Positions 1 through 53,814 of a stretch of 64,000 nucleotides of DNA are shown piece after piece. The translations under genes and the position numbers were made by a program. This stretch comes from Squalus acanthias (Eukaryota). Position 1 is the stretch's first letter. Each line of letters starts with the position of its first letter. The stretch lies in contig CM059432.1 of the NCBI GenBank assembly GCA_030390025.1, positions 73,906,001 to 73,970,000 of the forward strand, read 5' to 3'. The notes under the pieces were generated by a model, which was given only the letters and a program-made list of their open reading frames with translations, was not told where the DNA came from and did not search any database.

Positions 1-1356
1 GCATGGAAGTAGCTTAACAATTTAATGCTCTGCTGGGAACAGGTGATGAAAAAGTTTTCTGGTTTATGCAAGGTTGTCAAGATAAGTGTGCTCACACATA
101 ATTTAACAATGTTGCCTTATAAGGCATCTCAATGGCACTTTACAGTAAACTTGGTGCAGCGTAACATAGGGAGTATGCATTGCACTCTGGCAGCTGTTCA
201 TCAACTTTTCAAATGCAAAGTCATAACCATGGTTTATCAGGGCTGCTGATTGCTGTATTGCTGCGAGCACAATGAGTTTGTCCTGTTACCTGTGAAATCT
301 GGCAAGAAACAAAATCAAAGCACACTGCACAGACAAGGCACCTACATGCTGAATGTATACGCGCTCACATAAGGTGGCAACTGGTCAGGGCACTTGGGTG
401 ACTCATTGGACTGGATTTTCCTCCACTATGGAGTGGAGGGCAAAATTGGGCAATATGGCCTATCACTGCATTTCCACCCCAAGCTATATTCATTCCCTCT
501 GCCCCCGCTGGGATCAACATTGGTCACCCCTTCCCCACCTGCTGCATGGGAGGTGGTAGGCCCCCAGGTTCTCAGCAGATTTACGCTCCGCCCGCCCCTC
601 TTACCACTGCTCCCAGGACCGCGTGGAGAAACGTGGCTGCAGACTCGAGATAGCAGCAGAAAGGCCTGCTATTCTTTAAATGGAAGGAGAGGGCCCAATG
701 AAAACCACCTCTCCCTCCATTTCAATCCCCAACACAGACCTTTTGTAGGCCTCAGTGATGGCCGAGGTCTACAAAAACTGTGGTTTACTTCATCTTTGGG
801 GCTCTTCTGCCCTTTTAACTGCCCTTGCTCCATTCTCCGGTGCTGCACCTATCCAATTCTGTTTTAAAATTATTTATGGAATCAGATTCCACCACCTTTT
901 CAGGTAGAGCATTCCAGATCCCAACAACTCTCTAAGTGAAAAAATTTCTCCTCATCTCCCCTCTAGATCTTTTCCCAATGATTTTGAATCTATGACCTCC
1001 AGTTACTGACCCACTCACCTCTTCTCATAACTGAACTCCCTTATCCCTGCTAAACCTCCTCTGTACCCTTTCAAAGCCTTTACATCTTTCCTGAAGTGCA
1101 GTGCCCAGAATTGACCACAATACTCCAGCTGAGGCCTAACCAGTGATTTATAAAGTTCTCGCATGATCTCTGTGCTTGTATTTTATTCCTCTATTTATAA
1201 ACCCAAGTAACCCATATGCTTTTTTAAACACCTTATCAACTTGCTCTGCTACCTTTAAGGATTTTGTATATGGACACCAAGGTCTCTCTGCTCATTTACA
1301 CTTTTCAAAATCGTGCCATTTATAGTATACTGTCTTTCCATATTAGTCCACCCAAA

Positions 1357-2918
1357 GGTCGAAATTTTCTGGAGGTAGGCGGGGGGGGGCCTCTGTGGTG
1401 GGCGGGAAACCTGGGAGGCCGGGTTTCTCACAAGCCCTGCCGGCTTTAGTGGCAGGGCCTGATTTGAATGTGAAGCCTCGGATTCTCGTCCGCAGCCAGC
1501 CAGATTGAGAGGCTGGCTGGATGCGGGCGGGTAGGCTTCAGTTACATAGAGAGAGCGAGGGGTCGGTCTGGGGGAGGGACCACGGCGGGGGTCGGGGGGT
1601 GGTTGGGGAATGGCTGCCTCGGGGATCGCGGGAGGGGATGTCAGGGAACGGCTACCTCGGGGATCGCGGGAGGGGGTGTCGGGGAAAGGCTGCCTCGGGG
1701 ATCACGGGAGGGGGTGTCGGGGAACGGCTACCTCGGGGATCACGAAGGGGGTGTCGGGGAACGGCTACCTCGGGGATCATGAAGGGGGTGTCGGGGAACG
1801 GCTACCTCGGGGATCGCAGGAGGGGGTGTCGGGGAACGGCTACCTCGGGGATCGCGGGAGGGGGTGTCGGGGAACGGCTGCCTCGGGGATCACGAAGGGG
1901 GTGTCGGGGAACGGCTACCTCGGGGATCATGAAGGGGGTGTCGGGGAACGGCTACCTCGGGGATCGCGGGAGGGGGTGTCGGGGAACGGCTGCCTCGGGG
2001 ATCGCGGGAGGGGGTGTCGGGGAACGGCTGCCTCGGGGATCATGGGAGGGGGTGTCGGGGAACGGCTACCTCGGGGATCGCAGGAGGGGTGTCGGGGAAC
2101 GGCTACCTCGGGGATCGCGGGAGGGGGTGTCGGGGAACGGCTGCCTCGGGGATCACGGGAGGGGGTGTCGGGGAACGGCTACCTCGGGGATCATGAGGGG
2201 GGTGTCGGGGAACGGCTGCCTCGGGGATCATGAGGGGGGTGTCGGGGGTCGACCGGAGGATCGGTGATCGGCACGGAGGGTATTGGAGGATGGGTGGGGG
2301 TCAGCTGGAGATTGGGGGGATCGGCGGGGATGGGGGGGATCGTGAATTGGCGGGGGGGGCGTTGGCCGGGGATCGGGGGAATCGAGGATAGGCAGGGGCT
2401 ATCGGCCGGAGTATCGGCGGGGGGGGGAGAGAGAATCGGGGCTGGCCACCAGAGGATTGTGGCCAGTCTCAGCATCATCGGTGGGGTGCAGCGGGGAGGC
2501 CTCATGGTGGTGATCGGAGCCCTGGGAGGTGATTGGAGGCCTTGTGAGGGGGTCTCCGATCATGGGGGTGGGTATGGTCGGGACCCTGGATCCAGGAGGT
2601 AAGAATAAAGCCACTTACCTCCTGGATGCAACAGGCCCCAGCTCGGCTTAACTGCCGGGTTTCACGAATTATGTGAAACCCGTCCACAGGTAGTTAAATT
2701 CAAAATGGAGGTGAAAAAAAGCGGCTTCCAGCCTCATTACAATATTTAAATTAAGGTAATGTCCCCAGGCAGCGGATTGGCTGCCCGCCCCTGTCCTGCC
2801 TCCGGCAAAACTGGAAGTGGGTGGGTTGGAGGAGGGATCAGGTCGAGAATCCCATTTTTAATAATTTAACTGCCCTCACACTCCAAACCCACACGTTTTT
2901 TAGGAGAAAATTCCGACC
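1357..2918. mobile_element. Non-autonomous Harbinger-type MITE (MITE-1)
   Basis: TIRs GGTCGAAATTTTCT / AGAAAATTCCGACC (13/14 match), AAA duplicated at 1354-1356 and 2919-2921; no coding capacity. Confidence 0.9.
1605..2246 (+). repeat. G-rich minisatellite, 37-38 bp unit, about 17 copies, inside MITE-1
   Basis: Unit GGGGAACGGCTACCTCGGGGATCGCGGGAGGGGGTGTC with variants; explains the repetitive ORFs 1521..2267 and 1610..2233. Confidence 0.97.
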
Positions 2919-3639
2919 AAAGTTTTCACACTTCCCAACATTGAACTTCATCTGCCATGCTTCTGCCCATTTCACTCTCCTGTCTATGTCATCCTGAAGC
3001 CTATAACTATCCTCATCCCTATCTATTACATAGCCAAGTTTCCTATCATCTGCAAACTTTATAATGCTGCTGCCTACACCCGAGTCTAGGTCATTTATAA
3101 AAATTGAAAAGAGTAATGAAAACGGGCTGAAACCAATTTCTTGGCTCTTCTCTCCATCACACCTTGGCATCTCCCGATACGCCTCTTGTATCTTTTTTTC
3201 CTTCAAGCGCCTCACTCAATTTCATCACTTTCACTCTTCATTTAAAATCCATACTGTCCATCACCCAATGCTAACATCCTCCCCGACATGTCTTCTTTTC
3301 TCATCCAACTGACTCCTCATCTCAGTGATTTTGGCCAGAATTTTCACATTGCAGAGCGTGCGGGTCTGGGAGCGGATCGGCAGTTAAAAGCGCTGAAGTT
3401 GATGACGATGACGGCTGACTTCCGCATTTAACTGGAGCCCGTTTCGAAGCGTGCCACGGTCCTGCTCGGGAGAGGCGGGCGACCTTATTCAGGTAGTTAA
3501 CTGCTCAGTGAGGGACCCTTAACAGCCTTTTTAACGTGAGGTTTCAACTTTAACTGGTTGAGCACGGGATTCACGGACCTCGGGAAGCTCGCAGTGAAGG
3601 CAAGACGGGAACTCAGTGGCCATTGTAGATTGGTGGTTA

Positions 3640-5935: not shown

Positions 5936-7807
5936 CTAACATGGTGTACGTCCTCTGGGTTTTGGAGCTTGTGAGGGCCCCGTCAAAGACTGTTCCTCCT
6001 GCAACTGTGCAGGGGCAGACTCTGCCATCTGGATCCGGGGCAGCATGTGGGACTCTGCCTGAGGGGGAGGCAATGGGGGAGAAGTGGGAGCGCTTTGAGC
6101 AGAGCCCGCACTTCCATGTGCCCTCTCACCATTATCCCTCTCATGGGCCACCCGCAATTCCCTGCTAGCAAGGAGCTGGAGAGCACCTTGCTGCACATCA
6201 GTGGGTCAATGAACGCCCAAGTCTACATTGCTATCTGTTCTAGAGATGAGGTCAATAAGAATCTGCAATCTATTGTTCACAGCAAGCATGTTCTCGTTTG
6301 ACTGGTGCATTTTCTGCTCCATGCAGGTGGCCAACCTTTCCATGGAACAGCTCATCGTCGCCATCGCCTGCGAGATGGTGGTGCTCATGTTGGAGATGGA
6401 CTCCTCCATTCTGTGTACAATCGTGCACATCACGGCTGAAAAAGCTGCCTGTGCCTCACGCATTTGTTGCTGCTCCTCCAAGATCAAGCTCTTTGTTGAC
6501 AGCCCCCGAGGTTCAGCATCTGCATGCAGCTCAGCAGAGCTTGGAGTGTCCTGCGCCCTCCGGCGAGGAGTCTCCACTGCTGTCCCTGTCAACACCATCT
6601 GCTCTTGTTCACTTGTGATGTGTGAGACACCAGGTGACAACACTACTCTGTCTTGCAGGACCCACCAACATAAGTGTATCTGCGCTGGAGCTGGGTGTGC
6701 TTGGGCCTGGTGACAGTGCACCCACAGAGAATGGAGCTTCCTCTGAGGAGTCGTCTTCCTCCTCCAGCTGGACAGTGGGGGGGTGGGGGGGGTGGGGTGG
6801 GCAACTGATGATCCTGTGGGAGAGTAAAGACATGAATTAGATCTCTTATGATAAGAATGTGTAACGTTACCATTATGCCATGATGATATTTCACTGGCTG
6901 CTGACATCAGTCACCATGAGTGACTGTTGTATGCCATGTGGGATATTTCATTCTGTCACTAGGTTGCTGGGAGGTCCTCCTCTCTCTGTCTCCCACCACC
7001 AGCAGTTTTTTCACTCCACTTATTTCGAGAGCATCCTCCTCTGCTGGAGTCAAATTAGTATATATTGGAGGGCCACCTCCAGTTCTTTCTCTTTCTCTCC
7101 TATTCTGCGCTCTCTTCTCCTGCAAGGAGGGAAAGAAGAGAACTTTGAGTGAGAGTGATAGAATGAGTGTAAGGGATGTATGGGCTACATCTGTAGAGGG
7201 TGTCTATGAGGGAGTGGCATGACAGTGCCAAATGGCTTCCTTCCTACACTACAACAGTGACTACACTTCAAAAAAGTTCTTCATTTGCTGTAAAGCGCTT
7301 TGGGCGTCTGGTGGTCATGAAAGGCGCTACAAGTCTTTCTTTCTTTTCTTTCTTCTGTGGCGTTACTTTGTAGGTTTGCATTAGGCTGAGGGTGAGTGTC
7401 AGTGGTGGTTAGTCAGGTGGGGATGTGAGTAGGTGCATAGACAGTGAGAGATGGGTGCACCTGCAAAGTAGGTTGGTGTGAGGAGTGATGTGCAGGAGTA
7501 GGCTTGGGAAGGCAGAGTGATGGAGTTGGGGTGATATCAGGTTGTAGTTGAGTGTGGCATTGCACTCACCTTTCCTGACCTCATGAGATCATTATACCTC
7601 TTGCGGCTGACAACACCCCTGCTGCTCACTACTTGTGCGATCTCCAGCCATGTCCTCTTGGTTTCACTGGCTGCTCTCTTCCTGCTGCTACCAGGGAATA
7701 GGACCTCCCTCCGTGCTCTGACTCCCTGGACCAGAACTTCCAGGGACCAGAACTTCCAGGGAGGTATCCGAGAACCTGGGTGCAGCCTTCTGGCACTGTG
7801 ACTCCAT
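5936..7807 (-). pseudogene. Three-exon Myb/SANT-like partner gene of Harbinger A (exons about 7807-7570, 7119-6960, 6813-5936), disrupted
   Basis: APRFSDTSLEVLV..GVRARREVLFP..WLEIAQVV..RYNDL; AAG|GTGAG donor, TTGCAG and CCACAG acceptors; exon 2 RERERTGGGPP. Confidence 0.88.
7225..7352 (+). mobile_element. 3' fragment of the Deu-domain SINE
   Basis: ACAACAGTGACTACACTTCAAAA...TAAAGCGCTTTGGG...AAGGCGCTA, similar to 4140-4269. Confidence 0.85.
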
Positions 7808-16156: not shown

Positions 16157-16825
16157 ATGTGACCCAATGACATGACTTTAGCATTGTCTCAGGTTAAAAA
16201 GCAGAGTTATTCACCATCAGTGATTGCTAATTGTAATACTTGCTAAAGTAACCCTGCAGATAATCTTCTCATGTCCTGAAATCTACGGGGGCGATTTTCT
16301 GAGGCCTGAGGAGACAGGTTAGGAGGTGGGTTTGGAGGCGGGAAAGGCAGGAAAATAGGAAAAAATGAGTGCGGGTTTGGAACCCGCCTCCAACCCGCCT
16401 CCGCGGGATTTTGCCGGTGCCGGCTTTGCAGGGCGGGAAACGGTCCCACCTCCAGCTGGCCAGAGAGCTTGTTAAGAGGCTTAAATGCTCGTTAAGGGCC
16501 TCTCTCAGCCTATTTTGAGCGGCCCTCGTTATTTTTCGACCATTTCGGCATGTTCCACGACCCTCCTAAACCACGCCAGCTAAACCTGGCGGGTTGACAA
16601 GTGGGTGGTCTCCTCACAGCTACAGGTCCAACATTAAATCGGAGATTTCATCAGGGATTAGTTGCAGCTGGCAGAACTTTGTTTTAAAAGGACTTTGAGC
16701 ACTTTTAGCAGGCCTTCCGAAGTCAGAGGTGCTGCAGCTTGAATCTATCAACTGTGGGACCTCCTTGGAAGACCCTCTCCCCGCTTGCAATGAGCGCTTC
16801 CCCAACGGAGGCATCTGCCAGCAGC

Positions 16826-18136
16826 ATGGGAACCATTCATTTTCTTTCACCATGGACCTCAGATTCGGATGAGGAGCATCCACGGCAGCAGCAGAACCAG
16901 GCAGCTCAGCAGCAACAGCAGCAGGAGCCCCAACCTCCTGCTCAGCCACCTGATGCTGCACAGGGTAGAAGGCGCCAGCGCATTGAGGCACCTCGCCGCA
17001 GGACGTACCCCCGACAGAGGGTTTACAGACAGAGGATGAGCTACCTCAACATGAGTGAGCAGCAGTGCCAAAGGAAGCTGAGACTTTCGCGAGAGGCTGT
17101 CCGAGAGATCTGCGGACTGCTGCAGCAAGACCTGGTGCCCAGAGAAATGGGTGGACACCCCTTACCAGTGGCTGTCAAATTCACCACCGCACTCAGCTTC
17201 TTTGCCTCAGGCTCCTTCCAGGGATCATCAGCAGACATCAGCGGCATCTCCCAGTCGGCCGCCCACAGTTGCATCACGCAGGTTACCGGCGCCCTTTTCG
17301 CTAAGGCCCACAATTACATCCAGTTCTCAAGGGATCAAGCAAGTGTAACCGCCCGTTCAGTTGGCTTTGCAAATATGGCAGGCATGCCAATGGTGCAGGG
17401 CGTCATAGACTGCACACATGTGGCCCTTAGGGCACCCCATCACAACCCAGCTATCTTTGTCAACCGAAAGGGCTTCCACTCCCTCAACGTACAGCTGGTT
17501 TGTAACCACAAGAAGGAGATTTTGCATGTTTGCACCAAGTTCTGTGCTAGTTGCCATGACTCTTTCATCTTGCGGCACTCTAGTGTTCCTCCGCTTTTCA
17601 GTCCGCCAAACCAACTTAACGGATGACTCCTTGGTGACAGAGGCTACCCCCTGAAGAAGTGGCTAATGACGCCGATCAGGAGGCCAGCTAACGAGGCTGA
17701 AGAGCGCTACAACGTCAACCACACTTCGACCAGGTCCATCATCGAGCAAACCATTGGGTTGTTGAAGATGCGCTTCCGATGCCTTGACCGATCAGGTGGA
17801 GCCCTGCAGTATACACCATACAGGGTCTCCAGAATGGTCATGGTCTGCTGTGCACTGCACAACATCGCACAGCGTCGTGGCTTACAGCTTCCTGATGAGT
17901 AAGTGGCTCAGTTCCAGCCCTCCTCAGATGAGGATGAGGAGGAGGAGGATGAGGAGGCTGAGGAGGAGGAGGATCTGGAGGAGGAGGAGGACCAGGAGGA
18001 GGAGGAGGAACAGGAGGAGGAGGAGGAGCAGGAGGAGGTCAGAGTGCCGGTCTATCGACCAGCAGCAGCGGCAGCACGCGAGCACATGGCTGCCCATGGT
18101 GCAAGGGATGAACTTATTCTGGCCAGATTTGCATAG
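16826..18136 (+). pseudogene. Harbinger transposase, single frame with nonsense codons ending 17626 and 17902
   Basis: [37 protein letters not shown]; long E/D-rich tail. Confidence 0.93.
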
Positions 18137-18384
18137 GTTGCCCAAGTTGGCACATGTCCTTGGCTCCATCTTAAGACATCATTGACAATGGACATGTCTC
18201 TCTGGCCTCCTTTCACTCTGACCACCAACCTGACAATGCAAGTGTCGCAGAGCCCGCAATGTGGAGCTGCCTAAGGTGAAAGAACAGATGCCATATCGCC
18301 AACATTTTGGCATCAAATCATTTTAATGCTTTCCAACAGGGATGGCATTTCATCAATACACAGAAACACTTACCCAATCTGCAC

Positions 18385-18563
18385 ACAGATCTGGAGGTTA
18401 TATCCCTTGCCAGCTGGACCCACACAGCCTTGGTTTCTTTGGGAGGCCTCTTCCTCCCAGATGAGTGGAAGAGCACCTCCCTGCTAGCTGTCACCCCCTC
18501 AACCAACATTTGCAGCGCCTCATCCGAGAGCCTCGGGGAGGCCCTTGCCTTGGAATTGGACAT
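18385..18563 (-). pseudogene. Myb-like exon 1 stub of element B
   Basis: MSNSKARASPRLSDEALQMLVEGVTASREVLFHSSGRKRPPKETKAVWVQLARDITSR, then homology ends. Confidence 0.85.
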
Positions 18564-19117
18564 AGTGGTTTCTCAGAATGTGTTACAGGTGGTGCAGCAT
18601 CGGCAAAAATCCAGTGGAATGATCCAAGGCAGCAAACAGCCCTAAAATCAGGCTGGAAAAGTGATGTCAACAGAGGCGAGTTTCAGTCCCAAAACACTAA
18701 TTGACCAAGAGCAACCCACACCTCTCAAATCAAGTGGCCAATCAGGGGAAGATCACAATTTTTTGAAAACTATTAGTGGAGGCGAGTTTCAAACCCACCC
18801 AACCGAAACCTGCCTCCATCTCGCCTCCAGTGGGAAAATCGCCCCCTACGTCCCAGTTTAAAATTTGACATTGGTTATCATTTCTTCACACTTATTTTTG
18901 TCATGCTAGTTTCATCAATAAATGCAATACTTCACAAATATTTGACACCACTACAAAACTAAGTCAGCTTATTATCACAATACAACATCTATCTTGATAC
19001 TCATCGGATGATGCCCTTGGAAGCGCACTGGAATCAATGGACAGAATATCTGATGCCAGCAGCTCTTAAGTGGCTGCTGGTTTCTCTTAACACTGTCCTG
19101 CCATTGAGAAGGGAAAG

Positions 19118-19670: not shown

Positions 19671-21971
19671 TAAAAATAACAGAAGGCAGTAGATGATGAC
19701 TGGAGATTGTAATCCACAGTTAAAAGCCTTTGACTCCTTTTGAGAAAAGAGTGCATTGTATTCTGGTCTGGAGGCAATTGAGTTATTAAACCTGCCTTTG
19801 CTTTTTATTTTTTAATTTCCCTACTCACTCATTCACTCATTTATTCCCTCACATCAAATGTTCATTGCAGTGCGGCAACATAACACACTATACTGTTTTG
19901 CCAGTTAAGCTCTTTCTGAAGGAGTGTCTTACTGCCTGCATTCTGAAATAGGTTCTTCTTCTGATTCCATAAGTGCCAGCAGAATGAGGTGTAGAGGCCA
20001 ATTACCAACAAGCACCTCACATCCCTCAATCCAACAGTGGCAAGAACCAGCACAGATAAATCCACACTGGAGTGGTTCAGATAGTGAACTGTAGAAGAGC
20101 ACCTTTGGTGAAGCACTGAGAGCATGAGTGAGGAGGAGAAAGGAGCGGGGACATTGAAAAGCTACAGACTGCTGGTCAGAGGAGCTGCTTAAGGGATCTG
20201 TCAGCTACTGAGCCCTGGGATTTGGACTTCACAGGATCTGCCTACACAGTTTGATAGCCCAGCATCAACATTTCATAGAAGTAATTTAAGAGTGTACCAA
20301 GCATTTTGAGGCTTACCTGTGCAGTGCTGCATGACCTCCTGATCAAGCTGCAACCTACCATGGAAAGCGAAGTGCTCCGAGGCCAAGGTCCTGCACTCAG
20401 GAATAGTGTCTGTAGCTAATGCTGACTGGAGACATTTCAAGCCCTTGACTCTTTTTGAAGAGGCACATTGGACACCACAGTGTATAAGAATATAGAAGGA
20501 ATGGAGAGGTTGAGGGTGAAGCTGGATGCTTCCCCCAAGCTTAGTGTTAGTATCACTGTGCTATTGTTGTGTCTTCTCCCCACTCCCTCTCTCTTTCACG
20601 AACTCACTCACAAGCATACACTCAAGTGCAAAACCATCATACACAGTATATTCCAATGCAAGTATTATTCAAAGGTGCCTCTCCTAATTTGTGGAGGAGC
20701 AGCCTGTGTGCACGGTCAGAATTGAGAAACATCATAGGCTCTCCCAATAACACTTGCTTTGCAAGATGTTTAAATCTATAATAAAGCTCTCGCACATTCT
20801 GTGCAAAACAGCACACCGCTGGCAGGCAACCAGGTCAAGAAATTGTCCCGATACACAAGTGTAGGCAGAAAAGAAGCAATTTCCTGAACTTGTGATTTTA
20901 CAACCCCCAGCTATGGTAAACAAGGAGGTTGTCAGGATACTGGATGAGATAAAAATAGATGAAGAGGAGGTACAAGAAAGGCTGGCAGTACTTAAAGTGA
21001 ATAAGTCATCTGGCCCGCATGGGATGCTGTGGGAAGAAAGGGTGGAAATTGCGAAGGTGCTGGCCACAATCTTTCAATCCTCCTTAGATGCAGGGGTCAT
21101 GCCAGAGGACTGCAAATGTTACACCCTTGTTCGAAAAAGTGGAGAAGGATAAACCTGGCAATTACAGGCCAGTCAGCTTAACATCGGTGGCGGGGAAGCT
21201 TTTAGAAACAATGGCCGGAATTTTCTGGGGTTCATGCGGGCGGGATTGGAGGCGGGACGGGTGGGAAATTTGAAATATCTTACAGCGGGTCGGGAACCCG
21301 CCATCATCCCGCCCCCATGCGCCTTTCCCTCGGGCACGTTTGCCGGTGCAGCAGTGACCCAAATGGCAGAGGCAGGCGAGCTAATCTAAATCATTATGAG
21401 GTACTTGTCAGACCCTTAAACGCCTTTTTCACCCTACCTTTCAAATTTCCCTGGATGAGCACGGGAATCACATTGCTCTGGAACCACATCTGTGAATCTG
21501 AGGCAGAAGCTGAGTGACCATTGATCCAGCTCATTAGTGCACAGCACGAAAAGTAAAATAAAAACTCCAACCTCACAGCTGATCACTTTCATAAAGCAGA
21601 TGCTGTTGCTGACTGCATTGTCAGCACAGACTTAACTTTCTAGAGGTTGTAAGTGTTTCCAGCAACGTCGGCATCCAGTGTCACCTCATTGGTAGAACCT
21701 ATCACACCATTGACAGATTGCTTCTGTCATCTCTACTTGACCTGCCATCTATTCCATCAGCATGGGTGCCATTTATACTGTCTCACCTTGGTCCTCAGAA
21801 TCGGACCACGGTGAGCCCCAACACCAGCAGCACCAGGCACACCAGCAGCACCAACAATGACACCACCAACCTTCTCCTCAACCACCTGATGCTGCACAGG
21901 ACAGAGGGCATCAGCGCAGGGCTGCACCGCGCTGGAGGCTATACCCCCAACACAGGGTATACAGGCAGAGG

Positions 21972-23000
21972 ATGAGCTTCCTCAACACGACGGAGCAGCA
22001 GTGCAAAAGGAGGCTCAGGCTATCATGCCAGGTCGTCGCAGACATTTGCACATTGCTGGAGGAAGACCTGCAACCCAGAGCAGTGGGTGGACACGCCTTA
22101 CCAGTGGCTGTCAAAGTCACCAGCGCCCTCAACTTCTTTGCCTCAGGCTCCTTCCAGGGATCTGCAGCAGACATTTGCGGCATCGCACAGTCGGCTGCCC
22201 ATAAATGCATCACACAGGTCACCGATGCCGTCTTTAACAAGTCAGCCAATTATATCAAATTTTCCACTGATGAAGCCAGTGTTACTGAGCGGGCGATCGG
22301 CTTTGCCGCTCTGGCTGGCTTCCCACGGGTGCAGGGCATCATCGACTGCACACATGTGTCCATCAGGGCACCCCATCATCACCCAGGAGTGTTTGTCAAC
22401 TGCAAGGGCTTCCACTCCCTCAAAGTGCAGCTCATCTGCAACCATAGGAAGATCATCATGCATGTGTGCACCAAATTCCCTGGCAGCTGTCATGACTCTT
22501 TCATGCTGCGCCAGTCCACCCTCCCTCAGCTCTTTGCCCCTCCAAACAGACTTTCCGGCTGGCTGCTTGGAGAAAAGGGCTATCCATTGAAGACGTGGCT
22601 CATGACACCCTTGAGGAGGCCAAGTACTGAGGCCCAGGAGAGATATAATGAAAGCCACATTTCCACCAGATGTGTCATACAGCAGGCAATAGGCATGCTG
22701 AAAATGTGTTTCAGGTGCCTTGACAGATCTGGAGCAGCCCTTCAGTACGCACCAACCAGGGTCGCCAGAATCATTGTGGTCTGCTGCGCCCTGCACAATA
22801 TAGCACAGCAGCGAGGATTAGCGCTGCATGAGGAGCAAGGCACTGAGTGCACAGCCTCTTCAGAGGAGGAGGAGGAGCAGGAGGAGCATCAGCTGGAAGA
22901 CAAGGAAGGGGAGGAGCAGGAGGAACCTGTGATCCAGATTCCACCAGCACCTGAGCACATTGCTGCCCAGGAGGCCAGGGATGGGCTCATCATGGCTTGA
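21972..23000 (+). CDS. Harbinger transposase core ORF (342 aa), probably catalytically dead; upstream N-terminus (from ATG 21762) frameshifted
   Basis: IIDCTH retained, but GEKGY and VIQQ replace the GDKGY and IEQ seen in sister copies. Confidence 0.8.
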
Positions 23001-23311
23001 TTTACTTAACTTTACGCACGCATTACACCCATATGGCTGCCACATGCTGTGCCAGGTTGGCACCATCCCACAGCAACACCATAAAGCATCCCTACAATGA
23101 CCAAGCCATTCCTTTCACACTGACCACCATTGCTGGAGGTAATAGTATGTCTCACCATTCACTCCAACTCACTAAGCTACTTCCAAAGGTGCACACAAAT
23201 TTGTCCATGACCGGAAAGTGGTGAAAATAAAGATTTTTATATGTGACACCACAGCAATGGAAACTTTACAGAAATATTTAATAAAATACCCAAGTGGCTA
23301 CCCTTGTGAAT

Positions 23312-24663
23312 CTACTTGTGTTTCATCTTTCTCTTACGCGTACTTCTATGAGGTGCTACCCCTGTGGCTTCAGCAGAGGTAGAGGCAGCCTGCTCACTTC
23401 CCTGCTGCGACTGCACAGACCCTTTTGGCGGACGTCCTCTGGATTTTGGAGCCTGTGATGGCCCCGCCAAAGTCTGCTCCTCCTGCGACTGTGCAGGGGA
23501 CAGACTCGGCCATCGCTGTCCGAGGAGGCATCGGAGGCTCTGACTGGGAGGGGGGCAACGAGGCAGAAGTGGGAGAGCTTTGAGAGGAGCCCCCACTTGC
23601 ATGTCCCCTCTCACCATCATCCCTCTCATGGGCCACCCGCACTTCCCTGCTAGCAAGGAGCTGGAGAGCACCTTGCTGCACATCAGTGGGGCCATGAGGA
23701 CCCACTTCTACGTTGACATGCCTCCTAAAGAGGAGGTCTATGAGCCTCTGCCATCTATTCTCCTTAGATAGCATGTGTTCCTGTGAGTGGTGCGTTAGCT
23801 GCTCCATGCAGGTGGCTATCCTATCCATGGAAGAGCCTACAGTCACCATCGCCTGCGACATGGTGGTGCTTATGTTGGAGATGGACTCCTCCATTCCCTG
23901 GACATTTGCAGACATCGCAGTCGCAAAACCTGTCAAAGCCTTCTGCACTTCTTGCTACACCTCCAGGATCGCCCTCTTTCTGGATGGCCCCCGAGGCTCA
24001 GCGTCTGCATGCAGCTGAGCAGAGCTGGGAGTGACCTGCGCCCTCCGGCGAAGAGTCTCCACTGCTGTCCCTGTCTCCACCATCTGCTCTTGCTCACCTG
24101 TGAGTTGTGAGACACCAGGTGACAACACTAATCCATCTCGCGTGGAACCCACCAAGGTGTGTATATCTGCACTGGTGCCAGGTGCGCTAATGTCTGGTGA
24201 CGGTGCGCCCTCAGAGGCTGGAGGCTGCTCTGAGGAGTCGTCTTCCTCTTCCTCCTGGACAGTGGTAGGGGGCTCTTGATGGACCTGTGGGAGAGTAAAG
24301 AGATGAGTTAGATATGTCATATGAAGAATGGGTAAAGATACCATTATGCACATGGGAAGGTAGAGTGATGGGGATGTGATGAGAGGCACAGCAGGATGAA
24401 GTTGAGTGTGGCTTTGCACTCACCTTTCCTGATCTAATAAGATCATTGAAACATTTCCGGCACTGCACCCAGGTCCTCCTGACCACATCCCTGCTGTTGA
24501 CCTCCTCTGCTATTTGGAGCCAGGCTCCTTTTGTCTCCTGGGGAGGTCTCTTCCGCCCATTAGAAGGGAAGAGGACCTCCCTGCGTGCCCTCACTCCCTC
24601 CACAAGCATATGGAAGGAGTCATCAGAGAACTTGGGTGCAGCCCTCTGTCTCAGTACAGTCAT
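23312..24663 (-). pseudogene. Myb/SANT-like gene of element C, exon 2 deleted, exon 3 disrupted
   Basis: APKFSDDSFHMLVEGVRARREVLFP..WLQIAEEVNSR..RTWVQCRKCFNDL; C-terminus RSTRKRKMKHK. Confidence 0.88.
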
Positions 24664-25589
24664 GTTTGGCATTCTTTGTAGCAGTCCAATTGTGCAGTGT
24701 GCTGCCTGCACACTCCTAGATGAACCTTCAAATGCAATGTGGCCATGGCTCCTTTAAATATCCCGGCTGAAAATGCGTCACTGCTGACGTCATCAGACCC
24801 GTACCATTTAATAGGGCCGGGTAACGCACAGGGCGGCCTTAATAGGCTCCATTAACAGAAAGTCAATCTCAGGAGTGGCATGGTATGAAGAACGGAGTCA
24901 CGACCCGCCACAGCGACCGCCCGCACCGGACCCGCCCAGGTACAGAAAATTCCGGCCAATAATCCAGGAGAAAATTAACACCCACTTGGACAAGTATGGA
25001 GTAATAAAGAAGAGCCAGCATGGATTTGTTAAGGGCAAATTGTGTTTGACTAATTTGATTGAGTTTTTTGATGAGGTAACAGAGAGGGTGGAATAGGACA
25101 GTGCACTTGATGTTGTGTATATGGACTTTCAAAAGGCATTTGATAAAGTACCACATAATAGGCTTGTTAGCAAAAGTGAAGCCCATGGGATAAAAGGGGC
25201 AGTAGCAGCATGGATACAAAATTGGCTAAGGGATAGAACACAGAAAGTTCTGGTGAATGGGTGTTTTTCGGACTGGAGGGAGGTATACAGTGGTGTTCCC
25301 CAGGGTTCAGTACTAGGACCACTGCTGTTTTTGATATACATTAATGACTTGGACTTGGGGTACAGGGCACAATTTCGAAATTTGCAGATGACACAAAACT
25401 TGGAAGTGTAGTAAACAGTGAGGAAGATAGTAATAGACTTCAAGAGGACAGAGACAGGCTGGTGGAATGGGTGGAGACATGGCAGATGAAATTCAATGGA
25501 GAAAAGTGCGAGGTGATACATTTTAGTAGGAAGAATGAGGAGAGCCAATACAAGCTAAATGGTACAATTTTAAAATTGTGCAAGAACAG

Positions 25590-25732
25590 GGAGAGGGAGA
25601 AGGGAATAGAGGGTTATGCTGATAGAGTTAGATGAGGAAGGATGGGAGGAGGCTCGAGTGGAGCATAAATGGCAGCATGGACTGGTTGGGGCGAATGGCT
25701 TGTTTCTGTGCTGTTTATTCTAGGTAATTCTA
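25590..25732 (+). mobile_element. Short CR1 3'-end fragment inserted into the larger CR1
   Basis: GGGAATAGAGGGTTATGCTGATAG...GGCGAATGGCTTGTTTCTGTGCTGT...TTCTA interrupts the RT C-terminal region. Confidence 0.7.
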
Positions 25733-25828
25733 GACCTGGGGGTGTTTGTGCACAAATCTTTGAAGGTGGCAGGACAGGTTAACAAAGCAGTTAATAAAGC
25801 AGATGTGATCCTGGGCTTTATAAATAGA

Positions 25829-25971
25829 ATTGAGAGGTCGCACAACACCAGGTTATAGTCCAACAGTTTTATTTGAAATCACAAGCTTTCGGAGTTACTA
25901 CTCCTTCGTCGGGTGAAGTAAAGAGATACAGAATCGCCAAAGCATATATAGATAGAGAACAATGCATCTCC
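25829..25971 (-). mobile_element. Short Penelope-like terminal fragment with hammerhead-like motif
   Basis: 14-bp TSD GCTTTATAAATAGA (25815-25828, 25972-25985); minus strand CCGACGAAGGAG..CTCCGAAAGCTT..AATAAA..GTTGGACTATAACCTGGTGTTGT. Confidence 0.8.
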
Positions 25972-26977
25972 GCTTTATAAATAGAGGCATAGGGGGAATA
26001 TTAACGCCCAAAAATGGGTGGGTTTGGGTCGGGTGGCATATAAAAATGTAAAAAATCTAAAACTAACCCCAACCCGCCGCCAACCCACCCACTTCCGGTT
26101 TTACCAGAGGTGGGATGGGGCGCAGGCAACCAACCCACTCGCAGGAGGCGGATTGGTCATTTAAATAATATAATAAGGCTGCGTGCCTCAGAATTAACCA
26201 CCATTTTAAATTTAACCCTGGCCATCCAGGTTTCCCGGGCCTCGGGAAACCCAGCAGCTAAAGGGAGGTGAGGATTGCTGGATCCAGGAGGTAAGTGCCT
26301 TTCCACTTACCTGCAGGATCCAGTTAACCTGCTTCACCCACCCCCCACAATCGGACCCTCTCCCGACCCTTCCGATTTCCCCCTCGCCGACTCTTACAAC
26401 ATTCCCCCCAAAGTCTCCGATCTCCTCCACCACCGGCTCTTACAATCTCCCCCTGAGGTTTTTTTGATCTCCCCCCCACAAGGCCTCCGATCTCCCCTGA
26501 CACCAACCCTTCTGATCTCCCCTTCGAGGCCTCCAATCTCCTCCACCACCGACTCTTCCGATCTCACCCCCCGAGGCCTCTGATCCCTCCTTGCCTCCTC
26601 TCCGCTCCTCAGCTGCGGCCTATCTGTCCAACAGCCAGCCAACCTCTCAACCTGGCTGGCGGAGGCCGGGAAATGGAGACAAATGGCTAAAAATTCGATA
26701 GCCCCTGGAAACGGGCGCAGGATCACGATGCACGATTACCCCGCATCCATGCAAAGTAATGCAGGCAACACGCAAACTTGGTGCTACCTACCAATTTAAA
26801 TGATAGTGGTGTGCAGCCCAGTGCTAAACACGCTGCTGAGTGGCTGCCGCTCAGCAGAGGGCCCAAGCTTGCACCATTTAAAACTAGCCTGCACCTCTTA
26901 AAGGGGAGGTGCAGTTTGACAAGACCAGCTGCTGGAAGTCATTCCAGAAGGCAGTTTCAACTGGGAAACTTACAACA

Positions 26978-27177
26978 ATGGCACAGCAGGCCAGAGAAAA
27001 GGGCTCCAAGGTTCTCAGAGGCAGCCTCAGTACAGGAGGTGGAGAGGAGAGAGGTCATGTTTCCACAGGGAGCCAGGAGGGTCTCCAGACAAACACTGCA
27101 AAGGCAGTGAGAGCAGATAGCTACGGAGGTCAATGCCAACAGAGTTGCCCCGAGGACCTGGATGCAGTGCCGGAAGA
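26978..27177 (+). pseudogene. Myb-like exon 1 (5' part) of D-prime, cut at WMQCRK by a CR1
   Basis: RAPRFSEAA..EVERREVMFPQG..EQIATEVNANRVAPRTWMQCRK. Confidence 0.85.
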
Positions 27178-28597
27178 TTAAAAGGTATGACGGTAGATAA
27201 GCAGTGGCAAACATTTAAAGAGATATTTCAAAATTCTCACCGCATATACTTTCCATTGAGGAATTAAAAACTCCACGGGAAAAGTGATCCATCCGTGGTT
27301 AACTAAAGAAGTTAAGGATAGTATTAGATTAAAATAAGAGAATTATAATGTTGCAAAGAATAAAAGTAAGCCTCAGGATTGGGAGAGCTTTAGAAACCAG
27401 CAAAGGATGACCAGAAAATTGATAAAAAGGGAGAAAATAGAATATGAGAGTACAAGTGGTAAAAAGGAAGAGAGTAACAAAACTAAGTGTTGGTCCCTTA
27501 GAGGCTGAGACAGGAGAAATTATAATGGGGAATAAGGAAATGGCAGAGACTTTAACAAATATTTTATATCTGTCTTCACAGTAGAAGACACAAAAAGCAT
27601 GCCAAAAATAGTGGGGAACCAAGGAACTTAGCGTAACTAAGATCTGTAGAGAAAAAGTACTTCAGAAACTAATGGGATTAAAAGCCAACAAATCCCCTGG
27701 ACCTGATGGTCTACATCCTAGGGTTCTAAAAGAGATGGCTGCAGAGATAGTGGATGCATTGGTTGTGATCTTTCAAAATTCCATAGATTCTAGAACAGTC
27801 CCAGTGGATTTGAAGGTAGCAAATGTAACCCCAGCTATTCAAGAAGGGAGGGAGAGAGAAAACAGGGAACTACAGGCCAGTTAGCCTGACATCAGTCGTC
27901 GGGAAAATGCTGGAATCCATTATTAAGTTAGTGGTAACAGGGCACTTAGAAAATCATAATATGATTCGGCAGAGTCAACATGGTTTTATGAAAAGGAAAT
28001 TGTGTTTAACAAATTTATTAGAGTTCTTTGAGGATGTACCTAGAAGGGAAACCAGTGGATGTAGTATATTTGGATTTCCAAAAGGCATTCGATAAAGAGC
28101 CACATAAAAGGTTGCTACACAAGATAAGGGCTCATGGAGTTTGGGTAATATATCAGCATGGATAGAGATTTGGTTAACGGACAGAAAACAGAGTAGGGAT
28201 AAACGGATCTTTTTCAGGTTGGCAGGCTGTAACTAGTGGGGTGCCGCGACTATTTACAATCTACATTAATGACTTAGATGAAGGGACCGAGTGTAATGTA
28301 TCCAAGTTTGCTGATGATACAAAGCTAGGTGGAATAGTAAGCTGTGAGGAGAACACAGGGTCTGCAAAAGAATATAGACAGGTTAAGTGAGTGGGCAATA
28401 AGGCCTCCCTTTAGCTGTCGTGATACCTGAGGCCCGGGAAACCCAGATGGCCAGGGTTAAATTTTAATTGGTGGTTAATTTTGAGGCACGCAGCCTCATT
28501 ATATTATTTAAATGACCAACCCGCCTCCTGCGAGATGGAGTATAATGTGAGGAAATGTGAGGTTATTCACTTTGGTAGAAAGAATAGAAAAACACAA

Positions 28598-33374: not shown

Positions 33375-34354
33375 TTCAGGAGTATCAAACAATTAGCAAA
33401 GTATTCACTCTGGAAGTACAGAGGTAGAAAATGAACCAAGGCTGCTTGGAGCCCTTAAAAGCATCTGGATAAATGACGTCAGCAGAGGCGAGTTTCAGAC
33501 CCAAAAGACTAATTGGGCCAGGGGAGCGCACACGCAGGGAATCAATTGAACAATTAGGGCAAAATCGCAAATTTATCCTGCCTGACAGCGGAGGTGGGAG
33601 CGGGACCCGCCGACCACCTGACCCGCACCCAACCCGCCTCCATTAGTAAAATCGCAGCCAGAGAGTTAGCATGTAGGTACAGCAAGCAATTCGGAAGGCA
33701 AATGGCATGTTGGCCTTTATTGCAAGGGGGTTGGAGTACAAGAGTAAGGAAGTCTTACTACAATTGTTCAGGGCTTTGGTGAGACCACACCTCGAGTATT
33801 GTGCTCAGTTTTGGTCTCTTTATCTGAGGAAGGACATACTTGCCTTAGAGGCGGTGCAACGAAGGTTCACTAGATTGGTTCCTGGGATGAGAGGGTTGTC
33901 CTATGAGGAGAGATCGAGTAGATTAGGCCTATACTCTCTGGAGTTTTGAAGAATGAGAGGTGATCACATTGAAACATATAAGATTCTGAGGGGAATTGAC
34001 AGGGTAGATACTGAGCGGTTATTTCCCCTGGCTGGAGAGTCTAGAACTAGGTGGCATCATCTCAGGATAAGGGGCCGGCCATTTAAGACTGAGATGAGGA
34101 GGAATTTCTTCACTCAGAGGGTTGTGAATCTTTGGAATTCTCTGCCCCAAAGGGTTGTGGGGGCTGAGTCATTGAGTATATTCAAGGCTGAGATAGATAG
34201 ATTTTTGGACTCTAAGGGAATCAAGGGATATGGTGATCGGGTGGGAAAGTGGAATTGAGGTTGAAGATCAGCCATGATCTTATTGAATGGCGGAGCATGC
34301 ACGAGGGAACATAGGAACATAAGAATTAGGAGCAGGAGTAGGCCATATGGCCCT

Positions 34355-35194
34355 TCGAGTTTTAATGGAGGCGGAATGGGGCGGGCAGCCAACCTGCTTC
34401 CAGGAGGCGAGTCGTCCATTTAAATATTATAATAAGGCTGTCGTGCCTCAGATTTATCCTCCATTTTAAATTTAACTGTAGCTGGTCGGGTTTTGCAGGC
34501 CTCATGAAACCCACCAGCTAATGGAAGGCGAGGACTGCTGAATCCATTAGGTAAGTGTCTTTACACTTACCTCCAGATCCAGCGACCCTGCCTTACACAC
34601 CCCCCGCTATCGGCGAACCCCCCCAGGCTCCGATCCCCCCCGCAGGAAGCCTCGCCCCCCGTGCTCCCACAGCCCTCTATTGTCGTCTACCTCCCCCACC
34701 CCACTTCCCCTGGCTCCCCCCCGTGTCTCTTCTGGCCCTTCAATGATGCTCCAGACACACACCCCCACCCCCACCCCCGCCCCTCCCCCCCCGGTCTTCC
34801 GGCCCCCAATCATCTCCGGACCTCCCCCCTACCTCTTCGGCCCCCAATCAGCTCCAGACGTCCCCCCTGCTCCTCCGGCCCATCGATCTGCCACTCTGGC
34901 CTCCGATCTGCTCCCGACTTGCCCCCCCCCACACCCCCCACTGCTCCTCCAGTCCTCCCCGTGCTACTCAGGCCCTCCCCGACCACCCCCGGCCCCCACG
35001 CGATCCATCCCTCCATCCTGGTGCTGAATGCCAACCTGCCAACGGTTGGGAAACAAAGGTTTCCAATGCAAATCAGGCCCTGCCGTGAAATTCGGCAGAG
35101 CCTGCGGGAAACCCATGCTCCCGGATTTCCCAACCACTTTCGAGCACCAACCTCCCCCCCACTCCAAACCCGCCAAACTATTACATTTCAGGCC
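34355..35194. mobile_element. MITE-G (MITE-1 family); its other terminus is displaced to 37410-37447 in the opposite orientation
   Basis: Similar to 26100-26330; ends TTACATTTCAGGCC|AAT; partner end reads AAT|GGGGGAATTTTAAC on the minus strand from 37447. Confidence 0.8.
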
Positions 35195-39313: not shown

Positions 39314-40212
39314 GCATAAGAGAGATGACAGGGGCTCTTTATGCCAGGAGAGGGGACTTCATTGTCTTCTCTCTGATCAGAGAGAAGCAGATGGAGCATG
39401 CACGTGGCTTTGCCAGGATAGCTGGCTTCCCCATGGTGCAGGGTGCCATCGACTGCACACACGTGGCTTTGCGGGTGTCACATCTAAATGCTGAGATGTA
39501 CCGCAACTGCAAACGTTTCCACTCCCTGAATGTGGTGTGCGATGGTGCTCAGCACATCATGATGGTGAATGCCCAGTATCCTGGCAGCAGTCATGATGCT
39601 TTTATTCCGGAGTGATTATTTGCAACGCATTTTTCACTCTCGCTGCACATGCGCATCTGTTTGGTACCGCGCATGCGCAATCAATCCGGTCGCGCATGCG
39701 CAGTACCAAACAGTGCGGCGGCTACAGCCTGCAACTCCACGCTTGCCTCGGCTCCGTGGGGTCGGGTTGGTGGCTGGGGGTTGGGGGGAGGAGAGGGGAT
39801 CGAAGTTGGGGAGAGGAGAAGGGATCGAAGCGGGGGAGGAGAGGGGATCGAAGGGGGGATCGAGAAGGGATCGAAGCGGGGGAGGAGAGGGGATCGAAGG
39901 GATAGCCTTGGGAACCGCTTGAATTTGGTTCTAATTGCCGATGGCGCAATGAGTGGGTGGGAGTTCCGGGCCGGGGTGGCGGTGGGCCCGAACATTTGCA
40001 AAGGAAAATGATATTGCGAGGTGAAAGCTTTGACTGCCATCCTTGGTTGGATGGTGGGCATCCGTGCGTTTACCCCAAAATGTTGTTGGTCTGTAACCAG
40101 GGCTCGAAAGAACAAGAGAATAACGATTCAAAGCAGCCCTTCGCAGGTGCTGTTTTTCCAGCCTCACTATCTTATGCAGCCATAACTGAAAACCAACAGG
40201 AGTTTGTAATCC

Positions 40213-41440
40213 CAGTCAGATCAGAGAGGAGAGGGGATCGAAGGGGAGAGAGGAGAGGGGATCGGAGGAGCGAGATAAGAGGGAATCAAAGGGGGGAGAG
40301 AGGAGAGGGGATCGAAGTGGGGAGAGAGGAGAGAGGATTGAAGGTGATAGAGAGGAGAGGGGATTGAAGGGGGAGAGAGGAGAGAGGATTGAAGGGGGAG
40401 AGAGGAGAGGGGATCGAAGGGGGAGAGAGGAGAGAGGATTGAAGGGGGAGAGAGGAGAGGGGATCAAAGGGGGGAGAGAGGAGAGGGGATCGAAGGGGGG
40501 AGAGAGGAGAGAGGATTGAAGGGGGAGAGAGGAGAGGGGATCGAAGGGGGAGAGAGGAGAGAGGATTGAAGGGGGAGAGAGGAGAGGGGATCAAAAGGGG
40601 GAGAGAGGAGAGGGGATCGAAGGGGGGAGAGAGGAGAGAGGATTGAAGGGGGAGAGAGGAGAGAGGATCGAAGTGGGGAGAGAGGAGAGAGGATTGAAGG
40701 GGGAGAGAGGAGAGGGGATCGAAGGGGGAGAGGAGAGAGGATTGAAGGGGGAGAGAGGAGAGGGGATCGAAGGGGGGAGAGAGGAGAGGGGATCGAGGGG
40801 GGAGAGAGGAGAGGGGATCGAAGGGGGGAGAGAGGAGAGAGGATTGAAGGGGGGAGAGAGGAGAGAGGATCGAAGGGGGGAGAGAGGAGAGAGGATCGAA
40901 GGGGGGAGAGAGGAGAGAGGATCGAGGGGGGAGAGAGGAGAGAGGATCGAAGGGGGAGAGAGGAGAGAGGATCGAAGGGGGGAGAGAGGAGAGGGGATCG
41001 AAGGGGAGAGAGGAGAGGGGATCGAAGGGGGAGAGAGGAGAGGGGATCGAAGGGGGGAGAGAGGAGAGGGGATCGAAGGGGGGAGAGAGGAGAGGGGATC
41101 GAAGGGGGGAGAGAGGAGAGGGGATCAAAGGGGGAGAGAGGAGAGGGGATCGAAGGGGGAGAGAGGAGAGGGGATCGAAGGGGGAGAGGAGAGGGGATCG
41201 AAGGGGGAGAGAGGAGAGGGGATCGAAGGGGGAGAGGAGAGGGGATCGAAGGGGGAGAGGAGAGGGGATCGAAGGGGGAGAGAGGAGAGGGGATCGAAGG
41301 GGGAGAGAGGAGAGGGGATCGAAGGGGGGAGAGAGGAGAGGGGATCGAAGGGGGGAGAGAGGAGAGGGGATCGAAGGGGGAGAGAGGAGAGAGGATTGAA
41401 GGGGGAGAGAGGAGAGGGGATCGAAGGGGGGAGAGAGGAG
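40213..41440 (+). repeat. Polypurine minisatellite, about 21-24 bp unit
   Basis: (GAGAGGAGAGGGGATCGAAGGGG)n with GATTGAA variants; a few related units at 39785-39905. Confidence 0.97.
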
Positions 41441-41849
41441 CTCGGAGAGAGAGGAGGTCGGAGAGGGTGGAGAAGGTCAGGAACTCGGGGAGAGAAGGTC
41501 AGGAACTTGTTGGGGGCGGGGGGAGTACAGTGAGAACAGTGGGGAGGGGGAAGAACATGATCCAAGTCTAAAGGAGCGGGGGGAGAGAGCAAGAACATGA
41601 TCCAGAGGGGAAGATAGATCACGTTCTGCCACCCTCTGTTAAGCCTGGATCATGTAATTCCATCACCATCTCGTTTACACCTGCACCACGTTCTCCCTCT
41701 CCTCCCCATCCCCACCCCACACCCCAGGCCACAGCAGTTAAGGCAGCTCACTACCACCCTCTCAAGGGCAACTAGGGATGGGCAATGAATAAATGAATTT
41801 TTAAAAATGAGAGCATATTCTGTGTTGGTTCTATAACATTACATTTATG

Positions 41850-47807: not shown

Positions 47808-48478
47808 AGGCCCGATTTAATCCTGTTGACCATGGGATCGGGGCCGGCAGGTGGTTAAAATTGCGGCCAGACGCTTCCCGCTGCGTTCCCGAAGCATTTA
47901 CTCCTGCCGCCATTTTAACCACGCAGTTTCCGGTCACAAGGAAGGTGCCCGCCACAGGCAAGAAGGGCCTCATTAATCTTTAAAAGTCGGGTTCTGATGA
48001 GATTATTCAGATCCCAACGTGGTTAAAATAAGTCACAGTGCTAGGCCTGTCAATGAAAACTGGTGGCAGGCAGGATCGTGGCTAGAAGAGGCCGAGGAAA
48101 GTTAAAATTTTTAATTTTTTTCTTGGTATCCTGGAGGGCCAAGAGGAGTAGGCGTGCTCTTCCAGGGCCTATAATGAAACCTTGGGTCTCCACAGCCCCC
48201 TCACCAACCCCGCACCCGCCCCCCACTGGCCAGCCCCATCCACGATTGCATCCAGAAACACCCTCACCATTTACCTTAGTGCCGACGTCCATTCCTTCGG
48301 CCTGCTTGCACATAAAATTCTGCTCCCGCTCATCAGGCTTCTTGTCATTCCTGTCAAGAAGACGGTAATGAGGCCCAGGAGTTAAAATTGTTTGGGCCTC
48401 CCACCGATGCCTCCATGGGCACTTCCCACCCACCCCTCCCCCACACGCTGCACTCACAGCCGAGTTAAAATCGCGGCT
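47808..48478. mobile_element. Harbinger-type MITE
   Basis: Ends AGGCCCGATTTAA / TTAAAATCGCGGCT with AAA on both flanks. Confidence 0.7.
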
Positions 48479-48838
48479 AAAGTGGATCCTTTCCTTTAAT
48501 TTCTTTCAGCTTCCTTGACACTGTGTAATTCTTTCTGTGTGTGTCTCTCTGTCCTTCTAGTTATCTTGTACCCATTTTGCTGTTTGCATGATTTCACAAT
48601 TTTCTCTTTTGTCACTTCTGCATTTTTGCTTGTGTTCAAATGTTTTTCTCACTCTTTTATTCACCCTATTTCTATAAAACTTTCCTTCCTTCTGTCTCCT
48701 CTATGTCTCCTAATATCTCTGTATTGGTCTCACACATGGGAGCTAACTTCTGGCTGTTGGAGGTGGGTATGACAATTACATGTGGAGAGGTTGTTTGAGA
48801 GGTGTTGAATTTTCGATGTAGGTCATAAGCGTACTCAG

Positions 48839-51545: not shown

Positions 51546-51574
51546 TTAAGATTTAAACTAACAAAACAGAACAG

Positions 51575-53812: not shown

Positions 53813-53814
53813 AG

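Follow-up and report, generated by a model that had tools for sequence, protein, structure and literature searches.

The textbook splice donor as the word most shared by Harbinger MITE families in Squalus acanthias, and a donor hairpin that is probably a local accident

No word is shared more widely among the Harbinger MITE families of the genome considered here than the textbook splice donor. Among nine MITE family representatives, AG|GT(A/G)AGT ranks first of 26,776 one-degenerate 8-mers, and AGGTRAGT occurs 14 times in them against a shuffle mean of 0.3 and a maximum of 3 (300 shuffles), with the caveat that family B was included because of the finding itself and that two pairs of representatives are related. 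The genome searched for all genome-wide counts has 3.7 Gb and is rich in two-gene Harbinger transposons. In the window, i.e., the whole 64,000-nt stretch of S. acanthias DNA that was analysed, this word appears as a hairpin of two opposed donors carried by family B, and this specific hairpin is probably a local accident. As an explanation of the wider pattern we tentatively propose lineage-level selection for promoter-proximal U1 sites in MITEs, the family B stem being a secondary fold-back duplication, which we hold to be possible rather than probable.

The first-pass annotation had described three inverted repeats whose arms are splice donors, each in a copy of the same MITE family, and this description is correct. 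The pattern AGGTAAG-N6..16-CTTACCT picks out only these three hairpins in the window, 0/100 shuffles gave any, and the arms hold a genuine 5' splice-site consensus, far above chance. Copy A lies in reverse orientation relative to copies B and C, and the three hairpin copies, belonging to one family, represent one event and not three. The features concerned are the following.

1357 to 2918, minus strand: MITE copy A of family B, subfamily BA, complete (1,562 bp), with a 14-bp TIR (1 mismatch), TSD AAA and homology to copies B and C
1558 to 2247, no strand: tandem array with a unit of ~38 nt, expanding the variable GATC-rich half of copy A
2590 to 2627, no strand: donor hairpin of copy A, with 14-bp arms and a 10-nt loop
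2597 to 2604, plus strand: donor 2 of copy A, AG|GTAAGA, where the majority in the subfamily has AG|GTAGGT
2613 to 2620, minus strand: donor 1 of copy A, AG|GTAAGT, family-invariant, on the promoter side
2744 to 2751, no strand: TATA-like tract ATTTAAAT, ~125 nt before donor 1 of copy A, a putative promoter element
25992 to 26690, plus strand: MITE copy B of subfamily B1, with an approximate right end, in which no TIR pair was found
26280 to 26321, no strand: donor hairpin of copy B, with 18-bp arms, 2 mismatches and a 6-nt loop; donor 1 at 26289-26296 (plus), donor 2 at 26305-26312 (minus)
28404 to 28534, minus strand: fragment of the family B left half, stopping short of the hairpin
34353 to 35194, plus strand: MITE copy C, whose left end has given way to retro-element sequence and whose right end is approximate
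34549 to 34572, no strand: donor hairpin of copy C, with 10-bp arms and a 4-nt loop, the pairing continuing outward with mismatches

The family B element is a non-autonomous, gene-less PIF/Harbinger MITE, and its earlier description as a non-coding MITE is borne out by the TIR, the TSD and the lack of a real coding frame in copy A, whose ATG frames of at least 60 aa are confined to the tandem array and G-rich repeats, the long ones all crossing the array at 1558..2247. A TIR pair is also present in another family B locus (L044, 867 bp, TSD AAG), and none was found for most B1 loci, as for copy B. The TSDs AAA and AAG are A/T-rich and not TWA, the textbook PIF/Harbinger TSD. The layout of the family runs from the left TIR to the ATTTAAAT tract and, after ~125 nt, to donor 1, the loop, the mirror arm, the variable GATC-rich repeat half and the right end; a second ATTTAAAT tract lies at 26159-26166 in copy B. 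The AT-rich, TATA-like tracts that had been placed to one side of the donors are indeed found ~75-90 and 125 nt away, in a promoter- or first-exon-like layout. The left ~250-290 nt of the MITE are collinear with the left ends of four window Harbingers, and its right end is only weakly alignable to full-length Harbingers. Family B has at least 811 exact 27-mer sites genome-wide, with 7,368 first-look candidates. Rfam covariance models gave 0 matches at E<=0.1 in window positions 1300-3000. As for its surroundings, 69% of the window matched other genome loci, inspection by eye of the frames of 46900-55100 found no obvious host exon, and an array of ~25-nt units with strong G + A skew was observed at 39760-41490.

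Folding of 101-nt windows on the three hairpins gave z values of -3.5 to -5.6 on both strands, and the hairpins of 22 family B copies are predicted at ~-21 to -46 kcal/mol. The stem reaches 17-21 bp in the family majority, where each outer arm has its own self-palindrome, (G)CTGGATCCAG(C). The predicted unpaired probability at both donors of the three window copies is 0.00-0.13, and this prediction supports the suggestion that the stem is able to mask both. An anti-donor read from the opposite strand is itself a donor, so that any stem covering one donor displays two; the mirror donor is thus automatic, and donor 2 needs evidence of its own. In two family B copies (L316 and L317) the hairpin tip alone has been deleted, which indicates that the stem is mutationally active in DNA. 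At the centre of another copy (L319), half of the hairpin has been amplified into a seven-fold tandem with a unit of ~30 nt.

Decay of the GTAAG cores at the rate of their flanks had been named as evidence against the earlier reading, and within the subfamily such decay is what is seen. In a decay test on the 29 best hits to copy B, counting cells that differ from the majority, changes were found in 33/464 cells of the donor cores (7.1%) and 249/3,828 of the non-CpG flanks (6.5%; Fisher p 0.62, within the subfamily); inserted family B copies decay neutrally. A set of 29 BA copies was chosen on window positions 2640-2900 alone, with the hairpin outside the query. Donor 1 is AG|GTAAGT in 19/29 of them, and donor 2 is AG|GTAGGT in 16/29 and AG|GTAAG in 0/29. 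The second GTAAG of copy A is therefore a private change, and the claim that AG|GTAAG persists on both strands holds for the three window copies and fails for the family. The cells changed in this set were 16/232 in donor 1, 60/696 in the arms and 84/580 in the sequence beyond, a weak difference for donor 1 against arms and sequence beyond (p 0.049). Between the majority sequences of B1 and BA, differences fall in 0/8 positions of donor 1 (not significant alone), 1/8 of donor 2, 3/24 of the outer arms and 65/310 of the rest. That the two donors form a conserved unit is not supported, since donor 2 differs between subfamilies and an abundant sister clade keeps donor 1 without the hairpin; nor is the stem conserved together with the donor, as it is missing from that clade and its arms decay like the flanks. 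The constant feature of the family is a single inward-facing donor, ~300 nt from the left end and ~125 nt past an AT-rich TATA-like box, and this donor 1 is constant in four subfamilies, hairpin-bearing and hairpin-less.

The hairpin-less sister clade, first noticed from the loose ends of sequenced contigs matching 26150-26420, comprises 568 exact sites with the left end and donor 1 as in family B. Its donor positions +2..+6 are predicted to be unpaired (0.94-0.99), and a donor-like word on the opposite strand, at most 60 nt away, was found in 4/16 loci. The exon side is highly variable, yet position -2 is A in 14/16 and position -3 is A in 9, C in 4, G in 3 and T in 0, both positions being outside the search pattern; a bias of that kind at -2/-3 is expected from U1 pairing. 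On the left-end tree, in which the outgroup falls among hairpin-bearing copies and which includes two long rows and a long outgroup, the hairpin label needs 4 changes and a single hairpin clade is not rejected (p-AU 0.40). Donor 1 is thus what stays constant, whether a hairpin is present or absent; the stem has the look of an inverted copy, 17-21 nt long, and amplification can do without it.

No RNA data set on record was listed for 21100-27000, and signs of use in RNA were sought in contigs of eight runs that are only guessed to be RNA, from two organisms that are not necessarily S. acanthias. When 21150-26800 was compared with four guessed-RNA runs, the results were swamped by LINEs, and no clear GT..AG or CT..AC intron was present at the donors of interest among the joints listed (15 of 197). 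For 26150-26420, again against four guessed-RNA runs, 24 of the 32 pieces listed cross donor 1 unspliced and 6 end earlier; 2 end at 26291-26292, leaving 12 and 33 letters unseen, and none of the 24 loose ends listed falls at 26290 or 26311. In the genome itself, 12 sites are broken directly after AG, against 811 intact ones (27-mer). Their interpretation as spliced retrocopies was rejected: all are small deletions or insertions within the element, four of them being one duplicated copy, and 0/12 continue into foreign sequence.

Genome-wide, inward-facing AG|GTAAG pairs with a spacer of 6-16 number 2,975 against 174 for a reversed-pattern control, and pairs of the GTGAG form 2,143/2,120 against controls of 239/253, while outward donor pairs, 98 in all, show no enrichment. 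Donor pairs with a spacer of 0-3 amount to 161 (control, 25), further pairs have a spacer of ~22-24 nt, and direct donor tandems reach 2,886+2,860, a figure with no usable baseline because the control pattern is itself a repeat. Thirty-five loci from the first 50 sites listed (20 picked for varied loops) were sorted together with the three window copies into family X (16), family B (11), family Y (4), a long palindrome (2) and singles (5). Donor pairs are predicted to be base-paired in families B, X, Z, Y and W and in one CR1 5' end, and in family X the complementarity is limited to the 8-bp donors. Family Z, a MITE of ~670-845 bp with thousands of sites, sets three or four stacked donors against one opposite donor ~22-24 nt on, and its +3 position swaps A and G (GTAAGT / GTGAGT) between subfamilies; its loci include L164-L170, L174-L176, L180, L181, L124 and L249. 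The main carriers of GTGAG pairs are a CR1-like 5' end and the Myb gene, the latter at the donor of its first coding intron.

Some further arrangements of donors were observed along the way of these counts. Long perfect palindromes at the centre of L032 and L034 have a donor pair as their axis. Two young CR1-like LINE 5' ends have perfect donors before ORF1; a CR1-like 5' end bears an inverted donor pair with a 6-nt loop, TGAGTCA included, at the centre of L116, L117, L119, L120 and L133, and a tandem donor pair in L177 and L178.

In a donor-blind sample of 664 kb, consisting of the window and 60 stretches of 10 kb (20 adjoining the window), 18 TIR/TSD-bounded elements together cover 15,847 bp and account for 22 occurrences of AGGTRAGT; the other 648,153 bp yield 102, many of which fall in Harbinger pieces. 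At least one AGGTRAGT is present in 10/18 of the bounded elements and at least two in 7, and 8 have none. BLAST among families B, X, Z, G and W/Y gave no mutual match at E<1e-3; the left ends of B and Z are distantly alignable, so the MITE families are not all independent. Across the subfamilies of family G, donors were changed in 11/280 cells and non-CpG flanks in 260/2,519, counted over 14 copies that are not independent, and the same lean, without significance, is seen in Z (12/192 vs 82/819) and X (1/48 vs 42/545). Perfect 8-bp inverted repeats cover 3-17% of MITE bases. The proposal that the donors protect against premature polyadenylation finds little support, as a same-strand downstream AATAAA/ATTAAA occurs in 2/6 donor-bearing representatives and the six poly(A) hexamers of family G1 are all on the strand opposite its donors.

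Full-length Harbingers allow the inheritance of donors to be compared with their gain, and three features of the window are relevant here.

21213 to 24957, plus strand: two-gene Harbinger element with a perfect TIR and TSD AAT, DDE_Tnp_4 (PF13359) on the plus strand and Myb_DNA-bind_5 (PF13873) on the minus strand
24400 to 24425, minus strand: donor of the first coding intron in the Myb-like gene (AG|GTGAGT, 24418-24425), then an imperfect anti-donor ACTCAAC
24424 to 24663, minus strand: Myb_DNA-bind_5 domain of the same element

The left end of this element is collinear with the MITE left end and has no AG|GTRAG at the aligned place, and none of 30 loci of the full-length family collinear with B has a donor there. 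A search through 20 transposase loci and 30 relatives of the element at 21213 did not turn up the direct autonomous parent of family B. In six GGCCC-type full-length elements, by contrast, the leader contains a donor (+316 to +367) and, ahead of the ATG, an acceptor-like tract, which suggests splicing, so part of the donor signal can be plain inheritance. MITEs of the GGCCC-type have three or four donors, some of them where most sampled parents have a weak donor or none, and perfect donors number 2-4 in MITEs vs 0-2 in sampled parents; both inheritance and gain are therefore likely. The donors of MITEs lie ~280-430 nt from the element ends, and the gene-less L207 has kept a leader with donors, an acceptor-like site and an ATG. 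Homology between the family B centre and the Myb intron-1 hairpin was considered and set aside as marginal, its z of -0.5 to 5.8 (56 pairs) being inflated by the common consensus.

The Myb-gene intron donor with its near-complement was also seen at 7546-7571 (minus strand) and in L121-L123, L126, L127 and L130; the two are predicted to pair, perfectly in pattern-picked copies and with one mismatch in the others, and the near-complement could tune splicing of the Myb gene. In the 4/4 copies that were not pattern-picked (2/9 fetched right ends usable), the mirror arm in Myb intron 1 is broken to AG|TTGAGT, which makes a mirror donor optional. Perfect AG|GTRAGT words opposite the Myb gene strand, 75-93 nt inside intron 1, occur in two Harbinger groups (L212:3812-3905, L213, L214, L255, L224 and L240; window 36891 and 44772). 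At 16287-18846 lies a Harbinger deletion derivative that has the transposase frame and the first Myb exon only, with a donor at ~18368-18375 (minus strand). The left ends of L096-L113 show, at ~+20 to +50, a subterminal palindrome of G(T/A)GAGTAC halves with a 5-nt spacer, drifting from the donor consensus, which is a candidate Myb-binding site; the GCTGGATCCAGC palindrome is a candidate DNA target of the Myb_DNA-bind_5 domain. Harbinger transposase frames of ~385-392 codons without stops are many genome-wide, some with identical scores on different contigs, which suggests recent Harbinger activity.

One alternative is that inheritance and mutation account for the whole signal with no present function, the donors being first-intron donors of the parent's two inward-facing genes that deletion derivatives have retained as passengers, and the hairpins the result of quasi-palindrome template switching in MITEs rich in hairpins. 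We consider this unlikely. In its favour are the neutral decay of inserted family B copies, leader donors in GGCCC-type elements at distances to be set beside those of the MITE donors, the leader of L207, the weak resemblance between the centre of family B and the donor hairpin of Myb intron 1 and, for template switching, the share of MITE bases in inverted repeats. It has to contend with MITEs holding more perfect donors than sampled parents, which often have a weak one or none at the aligned place, with the conservation between family G subfamilies and with the top rank of AGGTRAGT across families. It is rather unlikely, too, that AGGTRAGT serves as a binding site on DNA, recognised by the Harbinger Myb/SANT-like protein or by a host protein, for which MITEs would have gained extra, end-oriented sites in competition for transposition proteins, the likeness to a donor being incidental. 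Human MSANTD3 may prefer a CACTCAC-type site, which the literature searched did not confirm. The GGCCC-type subterminal palindromes with GTGAGTAC-like halves and the perfect opposite-strand words inside Myb intron 1 would suit such a role, and according to PMC4055405 and PMC9392472 the Myb-like protein attaches to subterminal DNA and brings in the transposase. A fixed dimer site is hard to reconcile with spacers of 0 to ~24 nt and with tandem arrays, however; subterminal palindromes drift from the donor consensus and central sites do not, and the -2/-3 bias is donor-like. AGGTRAGT is found in CR1-like 5' ends as well, which favours recruitment of U1, because a Harbinger protein is not expected to serve CR1.

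The function first suggested for the hairpin was that of a two-way, self-masking donor, selected because it spares host splicing from damage or because, whichever way it is inserted, it supplies host introns with U1. The excess of inward over outward pairs, the predicted pairing in five MITE families and one CR1 5' end, and the recurrence of pairs in families without a mutual BLAST match would agree with it. It appears improbable all the same, its main difficulty being the abundance of family G and of the hairpin-less sister clade, whose donors are one-way and unmasked. Conservation after insertion is absent, donor 2 has changed in subfamily BA, the second donor is broken in the Myb introns that were not pattern-picked, family Z opposes its several donors with one anti-donor, and there is little same-strand poly(A) signal.

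According to the explanation that we prefer, selection for promoter-proximal U1 sites, the left end would still be a promoter and the ~100 nt before the donor a non-coding first exon. Binding of U1 at this donor, with or without splicing, would keep master copies transcribed and open, and lineages with more or better donors would be mobilised more often, the selection acting between element lineages and not on inserted copies; that a DNA transposon benefits from transcription is presumed. A review (PMC10228655) states that U1 bound close to a promoter is able to enhance transcription even where no splicing takes place. The family B stem may have arisen as a template-switch copy of 17-21 nt, comprising the donor and the arm upstream of it, which mirrored the donor automatically, and this stem is predicted to damp, not enable, donor use. 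The hairpin and the second donor of family B are likely a by-product, and it is likely the single near-perfect donor that would attract host U1 to a presumed leftover promoter. This is supported by donor 1 standing in the same place in the sister clade, with a -2/-3 bias as in U1 pairing; by the top rank of AGGTRAGT across families, the A/G swap at +3 in Z and the better-kept donors of family G; by a loose spacing (0-3, 6-16, ~22-24 nt, tandems) that yet comes with no outward enrichment; and by gene-less elements carrying donors where sampled full-length relatives have weak ones or none. The main difficulty, and what fits poorly with selection for U1 sites, is that the family B stem is predicted to bury both donors; the 8/18 Harbinger MITE elements that have no perfect donor also speak against it. 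One route of benefit is removed, since intron protection is independent of splice sites according to a HUSH review (PMC7619638). A bolder version, which to us seems unlikely, is that gene-less MITEs repeatedly evolved extra perfect U1 sites behind leftover promoters, pointing inward from either end, and became more mobile by engaging the host U1 particle, with the hairpin as meeting point and throttle. An RNA-processing signal would then be selected in elements that encode nothing and transpose as DNA.

In MAPT exon 10, SMN2 TSL2 and the HIV-1 major donor, stem-loops sequester a 5' splice site that is used and is tuned by a marginal stem. The family B hairpin is alike in having a donor predicted to be held in a stem, with a mirror donor on the other strand, but its stem of 17-21 bp is dispensable in the sister clade and its donors are putative. 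Introners, reportedly described by Huff et al. in 2016, are said to be non-autonomous DNA transposons with splice sites at their ends that are spliced out whole. Family B shares with them the non-autonomous DNA transposon carrying splice signals; unlike theirs, its donors lie at least 298 nt from the nearer end. Tourist-like MITEs (rice mPing with Ping/Pong), as presented in PMC4055405 and PMC9392472, are alike in short gene-less form, short TIRs, a 3-bp TSD and high copy number, and in ends that align with elements encoding a DDE transposase together with a Myb-like protein; what family B has in addition is a central, perfect, inward 5' splice-site consensus, often several. The word 'splic' gave 0 matches in the available text of PMC4055405, and 'splice' 0 in that of PMC9179366. 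Promoter-proximal 5' splice sites that raise transcription through U1, and U1 telescripting, as treated in PMC10228655, share with family B a consensus donor ~100 nt past a TATA-like tract, whereas here the carrier is a DNA transposon that codes for nothing and brings no downstream exon, and promoter and U1 binding are presumed. In sum, the family B element is a PIF/Harbinger MITE that at best acts like a promoter-proximal donor, and not an Introner.

The literature searched, outside most subscription papers, Repbase reports and supplements, gave no description of donor hairpins in MITEs. The present analysis adds the contrast with the sister clade, the change of donor 2 between subfamilies, the counts of donor-pair orientation and the word ranking. 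A natural matched pair for testing masking is available in family B and the sister clade that lacks the hairpin. Selection for U1 recruitment, if real, would account for MITE lineages that amplify more than their parents do and would link splicing factors to the mobility of DNA transposons, and thousands of ready promoter and donor cassettes would be spread across a vertebrate genome.
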